A stretch of 64,000 nt of DNA. It comes from an uncultured Gemmatimonadales bacterium (GTDB taxonomy: Bacteria > Gemmatimonadota > Gemmatimonadetes > Gemmatimonadales > Gemmatimonadaceae). How positions within the stretch are numbered: the first letter of the stretch is position 1; every line of letters starts with the position of its first letter. Below are positions 2,640-54,179 of the stretch, in pieces. The stretch spans positions 896,001 through 960,000 of the forward strand of contig CAWBZV010000005.1 in NCBI GenBank assembly GCA_963793305.1, read 5' to 3'. Under the pieces are notes generated by a model that worked only from the letters and a program-made list of their open reading frames with translations, ran no database searches and was not told the DNA's origin. Position numbers and translations under genes: made by a program.

Positions 2640-5045
2640 ATGCTGGATACTCTACGCCAAGACGCCCGCTTTGCCCTGCGTCAACTCCGGGTCGCGCGAT
2701 CCTTCTCGGTCGCCGCGATCGGCACACTCGCTTTGGGGATCGGTGCGACGGTCGCGGTCTTTAGCGCCGTCGAGGCGGTCGTCCTCCGACCATTTCCGTT
2801 CACCCAGCCCGACCGGGTCGTCAATCTCCATCCGGCGCGGAATGGCGCCGCGATCGCGGTCTCGTCAAACCTCGAGTTCGCCACCTGGCGCGAGCTCCCT
2901 CACGCGTTCGATAGTCTCGTCGCGATCTCTCAGGGGGCCTCGTTCATCCTGAGTCGCGCGGACGCCCCTGAGGTGCTGACGGGCGCCCGCGCGTCGTCCG
3001 CATTTACCCACGTGCTGGGCGTCGCGCCGGAGATCGGGCGTGGATTCTCTCCGGCGGATGAACAACCAGGAGCGCCACACGTCGTGCTCCTGAGCCACAC
3101 GCTCTGGATGCGGGACTATAACGGAACCCGTACTGTGCTCGGCCAGACGGTGCGGCTCGATGGCGACACGTACGTCATCATCGGCGTGATGCCCGCTTCG
3201 CTCGACGCGGTCAGCACCGGTGCGCAACTCTGGGTCCCGCTGACCCTGTCGTCCACCGACCTGCAGGACTTCAAGGCGCGCTACCTCCAGATCGTCGGCC
3301 GGCTCGCGCCGGGCGTGTCACTTGCGCAAGCGACCGCCGCGGTCGATGCCTCCGAGCGGAAGCTCGCGGCGGAGCACCCGATGTGGGGCACGGGATATAG
3401 CGGGCAGGTGACGCGATTCTCCGACGACATGATCGGCGCCTTCCGCACGCGGCTCTTCATTCTGCTGGGCGCGGTGTCGTTCGTCTTCCTCATTGCCTGC
3501 GTGAACGTCACGAACCTCCTGCTCTCGCGCGGCAGCGCGCGCGTGCGCGAGATGGGCGTCCGCACGGCATTGGGCGCGAACCGCGGCCGGCTCATCCAGC
3601 AGCTGCTCACCGAAAGCGCCGTCTTGAGCGCGTGCGCCGGCGCCGCGGGCATAGCGCTGGCCTATGCCCTGATGAGAGCCGTCGTGGCCGCCAGTCCACC
3701 CGGCATCCCCCGGATCGAAGAGACGCGCATTGATGGCGCGGCGCTCCTTATCGCCATCCTCGCGTCCGCCGTGTGCAGCGTGCTCGTTGGTCTCTTTCCC
3801 GCGTTTCGTAGCGCGAAGCCAATGCTTCGAGGGGGCTTGAGTGAGACCAAAGACCGCGGTCGTGCGCGTGGCGCGCTGGTTGCCGCCGAGGTGGCGCTGG
3901 CCATGGCGCTCTTGGCCGGCGCGGGACTGTTGATTCGTTCCGCATGGGCGATCAGCCACGTCGACCCCGGGTTCGACGGCCACGATGTGCTCACCGCACA
4001 AGTGCTGCTCCCGCCCGCGCGGTATGACTTCGCCAATGGGGTCGTCACCTACAGGGCCATTCGGGATGCCGTCGCCAGGACCCCGGGTGTGCAGCAGGTC
4101 TCTCTGACGTCGTCGGCGCCCCTCACGCCACCCATCCAAGTCGGCATCGGCGCCGAAGGCCGGCCGTACATCGACGGCGAGCGTCTCGTCACCAACGGGT
4201 TTATGGTGAGCCCCGATTACTTCGCCACGATGAAGCTGCATATGCGCTCGGGCCGCGACTTCGCCCAGACGGACAACGCGAACGCGCCGCTCGTGGCTAT
4301 TATCAACCAAGCGCTGGCGAAGAAGCTCTGGCCGAATGAAGACGCGGTCGGCAAGCGCTTCGAGGGCATGGATCCCAGCCACCAGCACCTCATGCAGGTG
4401 GTGGGCGTCATCGACGATGCCAGGACGATTGGTCTGGAGCAGGCTCCCACGCCCGAGTTCTACATCCCGTTCGAGCAGGTCCCGCCACCGCTCTGGTCCG
4501 GCCTCGGCGGCTCACTCATCATCGCCGCGCGTACGGCGACCGACCCTGCGATGATGGAGCGCGCCCTCCGCCAAGCGGTGGCCAGCGTTGACCCGAGTCT
4601 GCCGCTTGCCCAGGTCGCGACGATGGACCAACTGGCCCGTACATCGCGCGCCACCGCGCGCTTCAACACGCTGCTGTTAGGGCTACTGGGCGCGATCGCG
4701 CTCCTGTTGGCGAGCGTCGGCGTCTACGGCGTGATCGCCTACTCCGTCGCCCAGCGCACCCGCGAGATCGCCCTCCGGATGGCCCTGGGCGCGACACCGC
4801 CCGCGATCGCCGCGCTCGTGGTGCGCCATGGACTCACGCCGATCGTGATTGGGGCGGTGATCGGCGGCGTGTTGTCCGCGGCCACCACGCGTCTCTTGCG
4901 CGAGCAACTCTACGGCGTGGGGCCCGGCGATCCCACGACGATTCTGGCGATCGCCACGCTCCTCCTCTTCGTCTCGCTCGTCGCGGCCTGCATTCCGACC
5001 TGGCGCGCCATGACCATCTCGCCGGCTCGCGCATTGACGGCATAA
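2640..5045 (+). CDS. ADOP-family duplicated ABC permease (MacB/FtsX-like)
   Basis: MLDTLRQDARFALRQL...LALGIGAT, LIACVNVTNLLL, GVYGVIAYSVAQRTREIALRMALGA; two MacB/FtsX repeats. Confidence 0.92.
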   Translation: MLDTLRQDARFALRQLRVARSFSVAAIGTLALGIGATVAVFSAVEAVVLRPFPFTQPDRVVNLHPARNGAAIAVSSNLEFATWRELPHAFDSLVAISQGASFILSRADAPEVLTGARASSAFTHVLGVAPEIGRGFSPADEQPGAPHVVLLSHTLWMRDYNGTRTVLGQTVRLDGDTYVIIGVMPASLDAVSTGAQLWVPLTLSSTDLQDFKARYLQIVGRLAPGVSLAQATAAVDASERKLAAEHPMWGTGYSGQVTRFSDDMIGAFRTRLFILLGAVSFVFLIACVNVTNLLLSRGSARVREMGVRTALGANRGRLIQQLLTESAVLSACAGAAGIALAYALMRAVVAASPPGIPRIEETRIDGAALLIAILASAVCSVLVGLFPAFRSAKPMLRGGLSETKDRGRARGALVAAEVALAMALLAGAGLLIRSAWAISHVDPGFDGHDVLTAQVLLPPARYDFANGVVTYRAIRDAVARTPGVQQVSLTSSAPLTPPIQVGIGAEGRPYIDGERLVTNGFMVSPDYFATMKLHMRSGRDFAQTDNANAPLVAIINQALAKKLWPNEDAVGKRFEGMDPSHQHLMQVVGVIDDARTIGLEQAPTPEFYIPFEQVPPPLWSGLGGSLIIAARTATDPAMMERALRQAVASVDPSLPLAQVATMDQLARTSRATARFNTLLLGLLGAIALLLASVGVYGVIAYSVAQRTREIALRMALGATPPAIAALVVRHGLTPIVIGAVIGGVLSAATTRLLREQLYGVGPGDPTTILAIATLLLFVSLVAACIPTWRAMTISPARALTA

Positions 5046-5088: not shown

Positions 5089-5358
5089 ATGGAACTCAAT
5101 GTGGGACTCGGACAACTGCAACGGGTGTTTGGCGAGTGGGCCGGTGTCTTCGGCGGCGGCGAGTGGGTGATGATCGGTGACGAGCGGAAGCCGCTCGCGT
5201 GGCTCCTCACGAGCCTCTCGCGCTGCCAGGATCAGATGCCCTCGTCCGTCTGCGTCGTACTCGACATGGACGATGGCTCGACCTTCGCCCAAGCCGTCCG
5301 CTCCATTCGCGCCCGCCGCCGCCAAAAGCCCCGGCGCTCCCGCAAGCGGCTGGCATGA
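5089..5358 (+). CDS. Hypothetical protein
   Basis: 89-aa ORF with gene-like composition between co-oriented genes; no motif recognised. Confidence 0.5.
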   Translation: MELNVGLGQLQRVFGEWAGVFGGGEWVMIGDERKPLAWLLTSLSRCQDQMPSSVCVVLDMDDGSTFAQAVRSIRARRRQKPRRSRKRLA

Positions 5359-37389: not shown

Positions 37390-37920
37390 ATGCTTCTCGT
37401 GCATCCCGACATTGATTCCGACGCCCTGTTCGCTCTCTTCTATAATGAGCTTCACCAGCTGGCCGAGGCGAGCCTGCGTCGAGCTGGCGCGGCGCTCACG
37501 CTCGGCGCCACGACGCTGATCCACGAGGCGTATCTGAACATTGCGGGACGCCAGAACGTCGCGTTCGTGGACCGCGCCCGGTTTCTCGCTTACGCGTCGC
37601 GCGCCATGCGTGGTCTCACGATCGACTACGCGCGACGCCGGCGCGCGGCGAAGCGCGGTGGTGGCCTCCTGATCACGCTCGACGACGAGTCGCCCTCCGC
37701 CGAAACCATTCACGCCAGTGGAGAGCTCGAACGCTTGGGCGATGCGCTCAACGACCTCGCCAAGCTCGAGCCGGCGTTGGCCGACCTGGTCGACATGCAT
37801 TTTTTCGCCGGTTTCTCGTTCGCCGAGATCGCCGAGTTGCGCGGCGTCTCCGATCGCACGGTGCAGCGCGACTGGCGAAAAGCGCGGCTATTGTTGCATC
37901 ACGCGCTGCTGGAGAGCTGA
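37390..37920 (+). CDS. ECF-type sigma factor (kinase-associated type)
   Basis: FYNELHQLA...TTLIHEAYL...AMRGLTIDYARRRRAAKRGG...RTVQRDWRKAR. Confidence 0.92.
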   Translation: MLLVHPDIDSDALFALFYNELHQLAEASLRRAGAALTLGATTLIHEAYLNIAGRQNVAFVDRARFLAYASRAMRGLTIDYARRRRAAKRGGGLLITLDDESPSAETIHASGELERLGDALNDLAKLEPALADLVDMHFFAGFSFAEIAELRGVSDRTVQRDWRKARLLLHHALLES

Positions 37921-40489
37921 CGCCTGTTTCGTGAGCGGGTGCTGCTCGCCCGCTCCGGCTTTGAGCGCCGTCACCGCGCGCGCGATCGCCGTGCGCGCCG
38001 CGGCCGTATCGCCACGGGCCAGCAGCGCGCGCGCCTCGACGAGACGTGCCTCACCGACGAACGCGCTCCCCGTCTCCGTGAGCGAATCCCGCGTCGCGAG
38101 GGCGCGTGCGTCCGCGGCATACCGGAGCGCGTCTGCCGTCTGCCCGGCGTCGACCGCCAGCTCGCCGGCGAAGATGAGCGACGAGTAAAAAATGTACCGC
38201 CGCTTGCCGTCGAAGTACCCGACCGTGCGCAGTACGTCGGTGACGTGCTGCTGCGCATCTGCGCGATGGCCGGTCAGGAACGCGAGACGACCATCGAGCA
38301 AGCGATAGTCGGTGATGTAATCGTCCGTCTTCGCCAGATCAGGGTTCGCGCTCAACGGAAGGAATCGCGCCATCGTGCGCCGCGCCGCGGTGACATCGCC
38401 GCGGCGGAGCTGCGCTTCGGCCAACCCGAAGAGCGACCGCCCCAGCCAGTACCGATCGGTGTCGGCGGTCGCCTGCGCGGCGAGCATCCCGAAGTACTTG
38501 CCGGCGGAGTCGAAGTCGCCCTGGTCCATCGCGATGTCGGCGTAATGAATCAACGGCTGCGCTGGCAAGCGCCCCGTGGGGTCGCTCTGTCGCGCGCGAA
38601 CCAGCACGTCGTGGAACGCGCGCTCCGCCTCCGCCGTCTCGCCCAGTTGCATGAGAGTGATCGCCATATCGTGCTCGTTGATCGCGGCATCCATGGTCGT
38701 GCCGCGACCCGACGAATCCAGGACTGCGCTGGCCCGATGATACGCGGCGATCGCCTCGCGGTACTGGTGCTTCTGGTCCAGCGCGCCGCCGAGCGTCTCG
38801 AGGAGCTCCAAGTAGAACGCGTCGGAGGTTTTGCCCAGGCTGTCACGGATCTGAATCGCTCGGCGGACGTCGTCGGCGCTCTCCTCCGGATGCCCGCGCG
38901 AATCTTCGAGCAGGAGTTGCGCGCGCGTCGCGAGACAGAATGCGTGGGCTTCCGGGTCCGGCCGCGCCCGGAGCAGTGACTCGGCCACGGCCGCGGTGCG
39001 CAAGGCATTGTCGTAGGATCCGCGAGTTCGCAAATGGTCCGCCTGGCGGCACCGAATCCCGGCCAGTTGGTCGACCGTGGCGAGCGACTCCGCGCGGGTG
39101 AGGAGGGCGACGCGGATCTTGTCGTCGCCCAGATCCCCGTATCGGTCCGAGAGCTGCATGAGGAGCGCGGCCAGGATGCGCGGGTCGCCGGCGTATTGCC
39201 GTTCGAGGACCGCGCGCGCGCGGTCGACGATCTCGCGCATCGTGAGCGGCGTGTCGCCCAGTTGCGACATGAGCAGTTGCTGGAACTCGACCTGCGCGTC
39301 GGCGCGCGTGCTGGCGAACACCGCGGCGTCGCGTTGCCGTTTGGCGTTCTGCATCTGCGCAATCGAGAACACGGTCGCGGCGACGAGCGCCAGGGCCGTT
39401 GCGCCCGCGGCCGCGACCGCGGTGCGATTCCGCCGAACGAACTTTCGCGCGCGATAGGAGAGCGAGCTCCGCCTGGCGCTGATCGGCTCTTGATGGAGAT
39501 AATGCCGCAAGTCGTCGGCGAACGCCGCCGCCGTCTGATACCGCTCGTGCGGATCCTTCCGCAGGGCTTTGTCGACGATCGTGCCCACGTCGCCGAGCGG
39601 CAATGGAGTCGGCTGACGCTCGTGGAGCGCGCGAAGCGTATCGATCGGCGTCTCACACCCTTCGGCGGTCGGGTGTCGGCCGGACAGCAGCTCATAGAGC
39701 AGCACGCCCACCGCGTAGACGTTGGTCGCGGTCGTCACCACATCACCGGTCGCCTGCTCCGGTGCGGCGTACTCCGGTGTCAGGACGCGCGAGCCCTCGA
39801 TCGTCACGCCTTTGGCATTGAGCAGCTTGGCGATGCCGAAGTCGAGGAGCTTCACCGTCCCGTCGGCGGTCACCAAGATGTTCGACGGCTTGAGGTCGCG
39901 ATGGACAATGAGGTTCGCGTGCGCATGGCCGATGGCCCCGAGCACTTGGAGCACGAGCTCCAGGCGCTGGGCCATCGTCAGATGGTGGGCGGTGGCGTAC
40001 TTATCGATGGGCTGACCGTCGACATACTCCAGGACGAGATACGGCTGCCCGGCCGGACTCACGCCGGCGTCCAGCAACCGCGCGATACCCGGGTGCGTCA
40101 GCCGCGCCAGGACGGAGCCTTCGCGCCGGAAGCGCGCCTGCCCGCCGGGACTGAGTCTCGCGAGATTTAAGAGCTTGACCGCGGCCAGTCCCTCGAATCG
40201 TCCATCGGTCCGGCGCGCGAGCCATACGGTGCCCATTCCACCGTGTCCGAGCTCGTGGGCGAGCGTGTAGGAGCCGAGGACGAGGCCCTCGAGCGTGACG
40301 TTCGAGTGGCTCGGAGAGGAATCCGCTCCGGTCGGCGTCTGCCTCGCCCGACAGGAACGATGCGATTTCGTCCGCGAGACCTGGCGACGATTGCCGGAGG
40401 TCGCTGAGCCACGTGTCGCGCTCCTCGTCCGAGAGATCGAGGACCCGGTCGAGCAATGGCTCCAGCGCGCGCCAGCGGTCGTGATCCAT
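37888..40489 (-). CDS. Ser/Thr protein kinase with TM and TPR region (+1 frameshift near 40301)
   Basis: MDHDRWRALEPLLD N-terminus; GHGGMGTVW, HRDLKPSN, DFG, YAAPEQ. Confidence 0.93.
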
Positions 40490-40557
40490 GACGCCACGAT
40501 AAGACGTGTCGGGTTTCGCGGCTAGCCCGCGATTGCATGGGTAGCCCAGGAGCCCAC

Positions 40558-41912
40558 ATGCGGATCGCCGTGGTGTTGGTTTTCGTTCTCGCTGCTTGTT
40601 CAGATAGCGTCACGACCACCAGTCCTCGTTCTCTCGTTCACGCGCAGCGTGACGCGGTCGACCGGTCGACACTCGTCAGTACCGTTCGATCGCTCGCTGC
40701 CGGCCGCGGCGTCGTGCCCCTGCCGCAGGCGCCGCATGTCCGCCCGGCGCTGGCGCGTTTAGGCCGCGCACTCGCTTTCGACAAGATCTTGAGCGGCAAC
40801 CGGGACATTTCCTGCATGACCTGTCATCTCGTCGCAACTCGCGACAGGCGATGGCCGCAGCTTACCCATTGGCACAGGCGGCCTTGGCTTGGGTCCCGCA
40901 CGCGCGCTCGCCGGGGGGAGCATCATCCCGCGCAACGCGCCGCCTCTATTCAACCTCCACGCGATGCCGGCGCTCTTCTTCGACGGCCGCGTGTCGGTCG
41001 ATGCCGGTGGCCAGTTCCACACGCCGGCGGGCGCACAGCTCACGCCGGAGATGACGCGGGTGTTCGAGTTCGGCGCGCTTTCCGCTCAGCCGCTCTTCCC
41101 GGTGGTCAACACGGCCGAGATGCGCGGTACAACCGGCAATCACCTCGCGGCGCTTCCCGACACGGACTTCCAGGGCATTCTGGAGTGCCGCGATGCAGCG
41201 TCTGGGCCGCATCCCGCGCTATCGTGAGATGTTCGAAGCGGCGTACCCCGGCACGCGCTTCGATGACATGACGTTCGCTTACGCGACGAACGCGATCGCG
41301 GGCTTCATCATCGCGAACTTCACGTTCGATCGCTCGCCGTGGGATCGGTTCCTCGGCGGCGACGACGATGCGCTCACGACCGATCAGCTCCTCGGCGCGC
41401 AAGATTTCTTGACGCTCAAGTGCTCGATCTGCCACAACGGATCGACGTTCAGCGATTTGCAATTCCATGACGTGGCGCTCGCCCAATTCGGTCCGGGCGA
41501 GGGTGTCGCGCCGAATCCGCGCGATGACTTTGGGCGCATGAACGCGACCGGCAATCCCGCGGACATTTATCGCTTCCGCACCTCGCCGTTGCGCAACATT
41601 GAGCTGACGGGGCCGTACGGCCACGCGGGCCAGTTCAAGGAGCTGCGCGCGTTCGTTGCGCACTACAGCCAGTCAGACATTGCGCTGCGCAACTACGACC
41701 CGAGCCAGATCGACCCGATTCTCTACGGTACGCTGCTCAACAATGTCGACGCCGTGCTCGCCGCGCGCGACACGCTGCTGCAGGGCGTTGTGATTCCGGA
41801 TACCGTCGTTGACCGGCTGACGACGTACATGTCCGCCCTGACGGATCCGCGCGCGCGCGACCTCCGGCCCGTTACACCGGCGCGCGTGCCGAGCGGGTTG
41901 CCCGTCGACTAA
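40558..41912 (+). CDS. Di-heme cytochrome c peroxidase/MauG-family lipoprotein (+1 frameshifts near 40830 and 41179)
   Basis: Lipobox LAAC; LSGNRDISCMTCH, RNAPPLFN, FFDGR, CSICHNG, FRTSPLRNIELTGPYGHAG. Confidence 0.9.
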
Positions 41913-43653: not shown

Positions 43654-43917
43654 ATGTATATCGCGATGGGCCTCTGTGCCCTCATGCTCGCCGCCGGGCC
43701 TGGCATCACGAAAGACCAGGCTCAACGGACGGCGATCGCCGCAGTGCGCGGTGGAACGGTGAAGTCCGAGCGCCAGGCCACTGAGGCAGGTAAGCCTGTG
43801 TACGAGTTCGACATCAATGTCGCCAACAAGGGATTTGTCGAGCTTGTCACCGTCGACGAGAACACCGGCAAAGTGGTCGGTGAGACGTACGACGGTCCTC
43901 AAATGAGACACGGGTAA
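43654..43917 (+). CDS. PepSY-domain small exported protein
   Basis: ITKDQAQRTAIAAVRGGTV...VYEFDI...VTVDENTGKVV; RBS GGGAGG. Confidence 0.88.
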   Translation: MYIAMGLCALMLAAGPGITKDQAQRTAIAAVRGGTVKSERQATEAGKPVYEFDINVANKGFVELVTVDENTGKVVGETYDGPQMRHG

Positions 43918-43955
43918 GCTAGATTCTCCTCTCGTCGTCAATACGGGAGGAGTCG

Positions 43956-44805
43956 ATGGGCCTGGATGCATCATTGGGCCGACGCCACCTGCTGACGCTG
44001 GGCGTCGGCTCAGTGATAACTGCGTCGCTCCGTACTCTGTTACGCCAACCGCCGCCGCAGGGTTGTGCGCCGCCGATCCCGCAGCATCACGAGCCCGCGA
44101 ACGGCGGGCCGTGCCCCTATCCCATTCCATGGCTCGACAAGAACGGCAACCATAACCAGGCCGCCGGCCCGAACGTCGAGCTGTCCAGCATCTATCACTT
44201 CAAGGGACAGCTCGCTCGAATGCAGCGGCTTCCACGGCATGGGAACGGACAATGCCGGCAACCGGCTTGCCTGGGGCACTCCTACGACGGACTACAGCGT
44301 CATGTCCGGCGAGTACTGGGCGGCGCGCACGGCGCACCAGGCGATATTCGCCCACACATGACTGACCGTGTTCAAGGGGCCGGCGGTCCCGACGAACCAG
44401 ATCCACGATTTTCATCCACCGATCTCGCCTGAAGGCCTGTACTGGGTCACGCCCGTGCCCGCGTCGGGCCTCACGATGAGCACGGATGCTCGAACGGCTA
44501 CGATGCGCCTGACGAACGTGCCGATCATCGACCAACCACGCTGGCCAGCGATGGATGCCGAGACGACGCCCGCATTCATGGATTGCACGGTCGTGTGGAC
44601 CGCGACTGACCAGCCGGTGAAGTACGAGGACCCGATGCGGCAGTATCGCTTTGAGGGGCACATCGCGACCGCGCAACTCGAGGCGACCGTTCGCGTCCCC
44701 GAGATGGGGTTCACCTTCACGACCGATCCGCTCGCGCAATCGAAATGCGATTTCGCCGTGATCGGGAACGCGGTCAACGGCAAATACTACGAGACGGCTC
44801 ATTGA
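43956..44805 (+). CDS. Tat-type exported protein with in-frame UGA (candidate selenoprotein); +1 frameshift near 44220
   Basis: RBS GGGAGGAG, GRRHLL; after the shift ...AIFAHT-TGA(44359)-LTVFKGPAVPTNQIHDFHPPISPEGLYW... stays in frame to 44805. Confidence 0.65.
44362..44400 (+). other. SECIS-like hairpin
   Basis: GUUC-AA-GGGGCC-[GGC]-GGUCCC-GAC-GAAC; the G-initiated loop begins 20 nt after the UGA. Confidence 0.45.
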
Positions 44806-46142
44806 CCGCCGCGCAACTCGATCAACGTACCGACCAGGAGGTCGTGCGCGTGGTCTTCGCGTACCTCGCGTGCGCGACGATCTGGCTGCTGGTCGGAACG
44901 GGGATCGGGTTCTATGTCGCGCTCAAGTTCGTCTGGCCCGATCTGGGCGTCGCGAGCTTTCTGTCGGAGCCGCGGCTCCGGCCCGTCCACACGAATCTCG
45001 TGCTCTTCGGGTGGGCCTCGCTCGCCCAGATCGCGATGGCGCTGCTCGTCGTGCCGCGCACGTCGCGGGCCTTGTTGTTCAACTCCCGCTTGGCGTGGAT
45101 CAGCCTCATCGCCATCAACATCTCGCTGGTGACCGGTACGATCTGTCTCATCGCCGGCGTCAACAACGGGATGCAGGAGTACCGCGAGTACCTCTGGCCC
45201 GTGATGGCGCTCTATGTCGCGGCGCTCGTGCTGCTGCTGTACGTCCTGTATCGCACCGTGGCAAGCCGCGGGACATCGTCGATCTACATCTCGAACTGGT
45301 ACATCCTCGGCGCGTTCGCCTGGATCGCCACGCTCATCACGATCGCGTACTTGCCGTGGTACCAGCAAGGCCTGAGCGAGACCGTCATGCAGGGGTACTT
45401 CATGCACAACGCCGTCGGCATGTGGTTCACGCCGATGGTGCTGGGCCTTACGTACTACACGCTCCCGAAGCTGCTGAACAAGCCGGTGTACTCATACGCG
45501 CTCGGCGTGCTCGCCTTCTGGACACAGCTCGCGTTCTACCCAATGATCGGCGCTCACCACTTTGTCTTCAGCCCGACGCCATGGTCCCTCCAGACCGTCG
45601 CCATCGTGTTCAGCATCGGGATGGTGGTCCCGGTCGTCGCCGGCTCGGCGAACTTCCTGCTCACGATGCGCGGTGAGTGGAGCAGTGTCCGCAACAGCTA
45701 CGCGCTGCCATTCATCTTTGTCGGCGTCATCATGTACTTCGTCGCCTCGATGCAGGGAACCCTCGAGGCGTTTCGATCGCTGAACATGGTCTGGCACTTC
45801 ACGGACTTCACGGTCGCGCATTCGCACATGGCGATGTACGGATTCGTGACGTTCCTCATCTGGGGCTCGGTCTACGGGCTCGTGCCCTCGCTCACGAAGC
45901 GGCATCCGCCGCTCGTGCCGGTCGGCATGCATTTCTGGCTGGCGTTGATCGGGCTCACGATCTACGCCACGTCGATGATGGTCGGTGGCACGCTGCGCGG
46001 CCTGTCGTGGATCCAGAGCGCACCGTTCATCGACTCGGTGTCGTTGATGGCGCCCTACTGGACCGCCCGCGCGCTCGGCGGCGGTCTCATGGTCCTGTCG
46101 CACCTCGTGTTCGCGTACAACGTGTGGCGGATGCGGCCATGA
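44802..46142 (+). CDS. ccoN: cbb3-like heme-copper oxidase subunit I (divergent)
   Basis: RLRPVHTN, MHNAVG, YPMIGAHH, HFTDFTVAHSH; about 12 TM; TTG start overlaps the upstream TGA. Confidence 0.88.
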   Translation: MTAAQLDQRTDQEVVRVVFAYLACATIWLLVGTGIGFYVALKFVWPDLGVASFLSEPRLRPVHTNLVLFGWASLAQIAMALLVVPRTSRALLFNSRLAWISLIAINISLVTGTICLIAGVNNGMQEYREYLWPVMALYVAALVLLLYVLYRTVASRGTSSIYISNWYILGAFAWIATLITIAYLPWYQQGLSETVMQGYFMHNAVGMWFTPMVLGLTYYTLPKLLNKPVYSYALGVLAFWTQLAFYPMIGAHHFVFSPTPWSLQTVAIVFSIGMVVPVVAGSANFLLTMRGEWSSVRNSYALPFIFVGVIMYFVASMQGTLEAFRSLNMVWHFTDFTVAHSHMAMYGFVTFLIWGSVYGLVPSLTKRHPPLVPVGMHFWLALIGLTIYATSMMVGGTLRGLSWIQSAPFIDSVSLMAPYWTARALGGGLMVLSHLVFAYNVWRMRP

Positions 46143-53850: not shown

Positions 53851-53976
53851 CGCTGTGCCACTGCTCGCTGTGCCACTGCTCGCTGTGCCACTGCTCGCTG
53901 CATCACTGCTCGCTGTGCCACTGCTCGCTGCACCACTGCTCGCTGCACCACTGCTCGCTGCACCACTGCTCGCTGC
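53851..53976. repeat. 15-bp tandem repeat, 8 full units
   Basis: Unit CGCTG(TGC/CAT/CAC)CACTGCT between the convergent prx and hsp20 genes. Confidence 0.95.
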
Positions 53977-54179
53977 GCGAGCGCCCGACGACGTATCGGC
54001 TCCGGCGATGTTCGGTACAGCAGATCGCCTGCGCCGATACGTCGTCGGGCGCCCTTTGGCTCAGCCCCGGAACAATTCGCCCATGTGCACGGTTGCGCGT
54101 CTTTCCGCCATGCTAACAATGAGCAGCACACGGTCGCGCGAAGCGCGCTGTGTGATTCGCGTCGTGTTATGCGCGCCGA

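Follow-up and report, generated by a model that had tools for sequence, protein, structure and literature searches.

The 64,000-nucleotide stretch of DNA analysed here (the window) comes from an uncultured Gemmatimonadales bacterium and carries a gene whose reading frame is interrupted by a single in-frame TGA. We consider it very likely that this UGA, at 44359, is read as selenocysteine (Sec) and that the product belongs to a new, uncatalogued family of bacterial selenoproteins. The features of the locus are collected in Table 1. Frame 1 is open from the ATG at 43956 to 44219; past the A pair at 44219-44220 the frame is open to 44805 except for the TGA at 44359-44361. The terminal stop (TGA, 44803-05) overlaps the TTG at 44802 of the downstream ccoN-like gene, the two sharing the letters TTGA, and a ccoN from the same genus aligns from residue 2 of the frame that begins at this TTG. 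Purine runs like GGGAGGAG are also found 5' of the start codons in most homologs. An earlier reading of the letters by a model (the original prediction) had named the ATG at 43956, the TGA at 44359, a hairpin behind it and the stop at 44803-05, and each of these was found again in the sequence.

Table 1. Features of the locus, in window positions
Feature	Positions	Strand	Remarks
Shine-Dalgarno-like GGGAGGAG	43945..43952	+	Purine-rich, ahead of the start codon; read from the sequence
Gene for a 282-residue, predicted exported protein with one predicted selenocysteine at codon 135	43956..44805	+	Extra base discounted
Tat-type signal peptide	43956..44048	+	RR at codons 9-10; no clear AxA, cleavage site uncertain
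Extra A in an AA pair	44219..44220	+	Most likely an assembly error
In-frame TGA, predicted selenocysteine	44359..44361	+	Codon 135, context AIFAHT*LTVFKG
Core of the SECIS hairpin (6-bp stem with GGC loop)	44376..44390	+	Family covariation; the lower stem (44370-44397) is weaker
ccoN-like cbb3 oxidase subunit I	44802..46142	+	Neighbour, not part of the family; COX1 and TIGR00780 below cut-off

The frame is continuous once one base near 44220 is removed, as had been proposed. The extra A is absent from the contig of run X1, the only contig that spans the whole stretch (depth 8.7), and homologs stay in one frame across this region. Run X1 is possibly the source of the window DNA, and the check used assembled contigs. 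The TGA itself, which the original prediction had singled out for inspection in raw reads, is unchanged at 44359-61 in the contigs of all four public runs compared. An assembly error is the most likely cause of the extra A, because signs of frameshifts also appear in other genes of the window. A cytochrome c peroxidase-like gene (40537-41912, forward strand) and a Ser/Thr kinase-like gene (37888-40497, reverse strand), both named by eye from their translations, are each spread over more than one frame, which suggests further assembly indel errors.

A database search with the frame from 44221 returned 1496 proteins, most of about 145 amino acids and starting just past the UGA, and a profile search gave 995 representatives, many ending exactly one position before it. 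We read the DNA of 79 loci from GTDB, of 80 metagenome loci (the best 80 of 521 confirmed) and of the loci from whole-genome profile searches. The UGA column was scorable in 194 loci, excluding L092, L186, L187 and L225 (partial), L202 (weak) and the window's own copies; L089 was scored at its TGA despite carrying an insertion. The codon in this column is TGA in 192 loci, CGA in one (L076, also frameshifted) and TGG in one (L214). With identical contexts merged, TGA accounts for 169 of 171, CGA and TGG for one each, and TAA, TAG and Cys codons for none, the retention of an in-frame TGA that the original prediction had proposed to test in homologs. The homologs scored reach below 30% protein identity, and in a quick tree TGA occurs in each of the two main branches and is shared by proteins less than 30% identical; being a quick version, the tree supports no claim on donor or order of events.

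The databases list the two halves as separate proteins of 140-150 amino acids, as would follow if the TGA were an ordinary stop, either between two adjacent genes or inside a family-wide pseudogene. The DNA makes this extremely improbable. The stop in the column is never TAA or TAG and the halves are in frame without a spacer, whereas the terminal stop of the family gene is not fixed (TGA 51, TAG 15 and TAA 11 of 77 loci). A potential start codon occurs at codon +3 after the UGA in only 25 of 157 loci, and no second gene start is conserved across the family in the same 157. Purifying selection acts on both halves: against 149 close homologs, the uncorrected ratio of nonsynonymous to synonymous change (pN/pS) is 0.18 before the UGA and 0.25 after it. 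Finally, natural full-length forms with Ser, Cys, Glu or Trp at the position exist, and the two halves fold as one domain in an AlphaFold model.

Most of the named records belong to Acidobacteriota; Ktedonobacteraceae are represented at 33% identity, and Binatia, Eisenbacteria, Aquilonibacter and Gemmatimonadaceae have one record each; the closest database match (P0003) is 88% identical. Full matches were obtained in 10 of 151 Terriglobia genomes (about 7%; the class of G041), or 12 if two short matches are counted, in 11 of 121 Ktedonobacteria (9%; the class of G089) and in 14 of 401 Chloroflexota (3%; the phylum of G089). Among the window's kin the gene is sporadic, with none in 40 relatives (a count that takes in G012 as a non-match) and one full match in 250 class members. 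Some Chloroflexota genomes (G317, G644 and G898) hold two divergent copies, both with TGA. A few copies look damaged: L076 (CGA at 3692 plus an upstream frameshift), L089 (an insertion at 5139-5233, just before the TGA) and frameshifted copies in four long-contig metagenome-assembled genomes (L081, L084, L086 and L091). These are either errors or pseudogenes.

The hairpin downstream of the UGA has the form of a selenocysteine insertion sequence (SECIS). It spans 44370-44397, with an upper stem formed by 44376-81 and 44385-90, a GGC loop at 44382-84, 20 nt past the UGA, and an energy of -13.3 kcal/mol. Its significance comes only from comparison across the family, since its folding score and a genome scan, given below, are unremarkable. 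Across 156 close homologs, codons +5 to +9 hardly change at their third positions, whereas neighbouring codons vary; the Pro at codon +7 is CCG in 126 of 126. In 87 distinct rows from 101 aligned loci, 98.9% of the cells of the upper 6-bp stem are paired, against 31-65% at slid control positions, with two-sided changes at four of the six pairs and a covariation score reached by none of 500 shuffles. The lower 4-bp stem is weakly conserved (69% paired), so that of the hairpin as originally drawn the upper stem is upheld and the lower one is not. In the related strain X2 the 3' arm of the stem differs at two positions, and both pairs are kept. Between clades the stem sequences are wholly different, with a G-led loop (GGC, GGT, GTT or GGG) at the same distance. 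A SECIS rule written for this signal finds it after the TGA in 162 of 169 contexts (133 of 136 close ones and 29 of 33, mostly divergent, from the genome search), compared with 2.0% and 3.0% of other in-frame codons in the two sets, respectively. A search of Rfam with the hairpin region matched no family.

The window's genome encodes selA (contig C2), selB (C14), a Sec-type selD and tRNA-Sec, that is, all four of the genes selA, selB, selC and selD that the original prediction had suggested seeking. The selD gene (G000, contig C11, 59733-60941) itself contains an in-frame TGA with a hairpin behind it, and the next feature downstream is tRNA-Sec. We then counted 80 carrier genomes, defined by TGA or CGA at the site, including the window's own and taking in 50 of the 79 GTDB loci: Sec genes (at least part of the set) are present in all 80. 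The first marker (selA or selB) turned up in 76 of them if a split and a partial selA are included, and the four misses (G058, G071, G327 and G889) all have tRNA-Sec and a TGA-bearing selD, three of them with selB. This agreement carries moderate weight, because related genomes are not independent and the background is high.

At the N-terminus, an R-R pair conserved in 49 and 46 of 50 rows precedes a hydrophobic stretch, in keeping with the twin-arginine translocation (Tat) signal that had been claimed. The TAT_signal model matches 9 of 20 and 17 of 83 members weakly, and the window's own N-terminal piece gave no match to it in the model search. We infer that the protein is exported in folded form by Tat. 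In the AlphaFold model (U modelled as C) both halves form one domain, with a predicted local distance difference test score (pLDDT) of 97.3 and a predicted template-modelling score (pTM) of 0.92. The predicted structure is all-beta, similar to 8-stranded barrels. For neither of the two models compared did Foldseek return a match at E <= 0.001, and a VIA-align structure comparison returned generic barrels only, showing neither a new fold nor family membership: the membrane barrels NspA/OmpW and the soluble barrels CghA/Fsa2, AttH, 25-phosphosteroid lyase and acetoacetate decarboxylase lie at root-mean-square deviations of 3.4-5.5 Å and identities of at most 10%, with no clear top match. Ktedonobacteria are not known to have an outer membrane. 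The Tat signal, the presence of the family in Ktedonobacteria and two forms with sortase-like tails point to a soluble rather than an outer-membrane protein. Those two forms, P0125 (a close relative of L214) and P0279, end in what we take to be an LPxTG-like motif followed by a hydrophobic tail, which suggests cell-wall-anchored variants.

Asp112 and His150 are near-invariant. By strand register, Sec135 probably sits at a strand bulge on the same face as these two residues, and His66, Glu75 and Asp192 are further candidate site residues in the model. We favour, with moderate confidence, an extracytoplasmic enzyme with a Sec-His-Asp pocket in which the selenolate is the acting group. The selenolate would either coordinate a bound metal or make a nucleophilic attack on a small molecule, probably in detoxification. 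A thiol-disulfide oxidoreductase is unlikely, since no resolving Cys is conserved.

Other residues at the Sec position bear on the interpretation as well. Database proteins that span the column have W in 37 cases, S in seven (three independent lines), C in three and E in one; a fourth C in this count represents the U of the window's protein, and another four rows come from frameshifted fragments. It could be proposed that the UGA is read through by a non-Sec route, either by Trp insertion or by programmed read-through stimulated by the hairpin, and the W at the column, the natural TGG form L214 with its close relative P0125, and the scarcity of Cys forms all speak for it. However, the TGG form has lost both the hairpin and the invariant Asp, and the hairpin of the other members fits the SelB-type pattern. 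The W-bearing proteins, most of them from short contigs of the Joint Genome Institute (JGI), sit among TGA-verified loci on the quick tree, and several have a further W at the point where members usually end, as would be expected of gene calls that take UGA for Trp; we take the W in these proteins to be the result of such calls on short contigs. Of 1424 long frames in this genome, shadow frames included, 801 stop at TGA, more than at any other stop codon, and TGA also ends the family gene in 51 of 77 loci. Read-through by a non-Sec route is thus very unlikely in our judgement, and insertion of Sec remains the reading we prefer.

Several points count against Sec insertion or lower the weight of its support. 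The evidence consists of sequence signals and predicted structure, and the geometry of the pocket is drawn from secondary structure only. The stability of the hairpin alone is not beyond chance (folding z = 0.19 to 1.10), a loose SECIS-like scan of the window's genome gave 1148 matches and has no value as evidence, and the loop-distance window of the SECIS rule (17-21 nt) was picked after the data had been seen. The Sec genes discriminate only moderately because they are common in these lineages: among the 151 Terriglobia, carriers included, 124 have selA, as do 26 of 30 Ktedonobacteria and 16 of 23 family relatives, and selB is present in 50 of 69 Chloroflexota, a background of 70-87% in which non-carriers were scored on the first marker only. 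Cys forms are rare, with three database proteins (P0156, P0286 and P0296, protein records only) and none in 171 DNA contexts. The TGG form (L214, in G598) is genuine; it fails the SECIS rule, and its genome also has selA and selB. The 37 W-bearing proteins are known from protein records only, and eight of them form one clade with no DNA-verified member.

Weighing both sides, we hold to a single gene of an uncatalogued selenoprotein family carried by Acidobacteriota and Chloroflexota of soil and peat and by a few other bacteria. UGA 44359 would be decoded as selenocysteine as in the known bacterial Sec pathway, with the hairpin, 20 nt further on, recruiting SelB-tRNA(Sec). The folded protein, to judge by its RR signal, would then leave the cell by Tat, its mature part being a predicted all-beta domain like the 8-stranded barrels. 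The Sec recoding first proposed from the letters alone gains support from the TGA column, the covarying hairpin, the Sec genes and the unchanged TGA in the contigs together, and none of the refuting observations named with that proposal turned up in the homologs, carrier genomes and contigs compared.

The genes downstream of the locus are ccoN-, ccoO- and cytochrome-c-like, and the original prediction saw in them a respiratory oxidase operon to which the selenoprotein is coupled. The protein might then serve the adjacent cbb3-type oxidase, for instance in copper delivery or assembly: the stop and start overlap in TTGA at 44802-05 on the same strand, no terminator-like site lies between the family gene and the ccoN-like gene, and a His/Asp/Sec site could bind copper. 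The family gene and the oxidase genes may be co-transcribed at this locus, where a promoter and terminator scan gave nothing informative. However, none of the 184 family loci (1.26 Mb in all) contains a match to ccoN, ccoO, the cytochrome c or the PepSY gene beside them, and this ccoN type is found in 10 of 40 relatives, none of which has the family gene; upstream of a ccoN from the same genus the DNA is unrelated. Judged by gene order, the oxidase coupling is local only and does not hold as a property of the family, and we regard a role in serving the oxidase as unlikely.

No conserved gene partner emerged either. Even the most frequent neighbour family is confined to 19 of the 157 loci measured, and 108 of these extend at least 2.5 kb beyond the UGA. 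The commonest neighbours are a mixed cluster of hydrolases and domains of unknown function (DUF; 19 of 157), two-component parts (18), cytochrome P460 (18) and short-chain dehydrogenases/reductases (SDRs, 17). Frequent neighbours sit at varying places and strands, and divergent loci share none. In its 18 loci, the cytochrome P460-domain gene is no more than 5 kb away from the family gene and sometimes adjacent to it; examples are L052, L074, L081, L084 and L113 (upstream) and L035, L048 and L168 (downstream). In the window, a small PepSY-domain gene lies directly upstream (43654-43917, forward strand) and is not found beside other family members. Farther along, at about 53855-54000, a low-complexity tandem repeat (HCSLC/HCSLH-like in one frame) directly follows an AhpC/TSA-like gene.

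The core domain has no match in Pfam at E <= 5 (20 members) or in NCBIfam 20.0 at E <= 0.1 (83 members), a PDB sequence search gave no match, and a full-text literature search, thin on subscription journals, returned no description of the family. Language-model features of one database homolog, not a Sec form, placed it nearest to clusters of DUF1838 (PF08894), a family of similar length with no hidden Markov model (HMM) match to ours; a DUF1838 search of the window's genome gave no match, and as its control also matched nowhere, this negative is uninformative. DUF1838 is not known as a selenoprotein. The family could be a remote Sec-bearing branch of such a described barrel family, DUF1838 or the AttH/Fsa2-CghA type, which would be compatible with Sec insertion; we think this rather unlikely.

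If these pieces are put together, a tentative picture, to which we give somewhat less than even credence, is that of an old, nearly Sec-obligate class of secreted selenoenzymes, built on a beta-barrel scaffold unseen among selenoproteins, with a Sec-His-Asp and possibly metal-binding site for a chemistry to which Cys is poorly suited. In that case the family would have been missed because pipelines seek Cys/TGA pairs and gene callers split the gene in two, and it would point to further hidden Cys-less selenoproteins in soil bacteria. In current databases the family appears either as a pair of hypothetical half-proteins or as a protein with Trp in the Sec position. Its recognition adds a widespread family to the bacterial selenoproteome in soil lineages to which few selenoproteins are generally ascribed; PMC12013277 gives three for one Acidobacteriota genome. 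With selA or selB in 70-87% of the genomes sampled from Terriglobia, Ktedonobacteria, Chloroflexota and the host's family, a Cys-independent selenoprotein screen would be worthwhile. The protein, small, well modelled and predicted to be exported, offers a handle for new selenium chemistry, and as the family breaks two rules of the field (a thiol-oxidoreductase-type motif and abundant Cys homologs), it is a test case for searches based on Cys/TGA pairs.

Compared with known systems, the recoding signal departs in no feature from the bacterial SelA/SelB/SelC/SelD system with a bacterial SECIS (bSECIS) 3' of the UGA. The bSECIS model, as given in PMC13188914, requires a loop of 3-5 nt led by G[G/U], 16-37 nt after the UGA, and an energy below -7.5 kcal/mol; here too we find an in-frame UGA, a G-led loop, a 20-nt spacing and a 6-bp stem, with the energy in range. 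Table 1 of that paper catalogues 119 prokaryotic selenoprotein families and subfamilies. Compared by eye, the Sec context of our family (H-T-U-L-T or F-I/V-U-L-D) fits none of the motifs listed there (UxxC, CxxU, CU, GU and others), and entries with only CDD or PANTHER identifiers, or none, were set apart by motif alone. The comparison excludes the BSepDB database and Table S2 of PMC13326102, which could bear on novelty. Within this scope, and with no core match in Pfam or NCBIfam, the earlier statement that no known selenoprotein family could be assigned stands. Cys homologs are the usual rule for selenoproteins according to PMC12013277; contrary to it, Cys forms are rare here, which could explain why the family was overlooked. 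Thioredoxin-fold selenoproteins carry UxxC or CxxU in an alpha/beta fold, whereas our family has no such motif and its model is all-beta. As in the families tabulated in PMC13188914, there is a single Sec per protein, and some of those families are also extracytoplasmic; unlike them, the family described here combines a non-thioredoxin-like fold with a scarcity of Cys forms.
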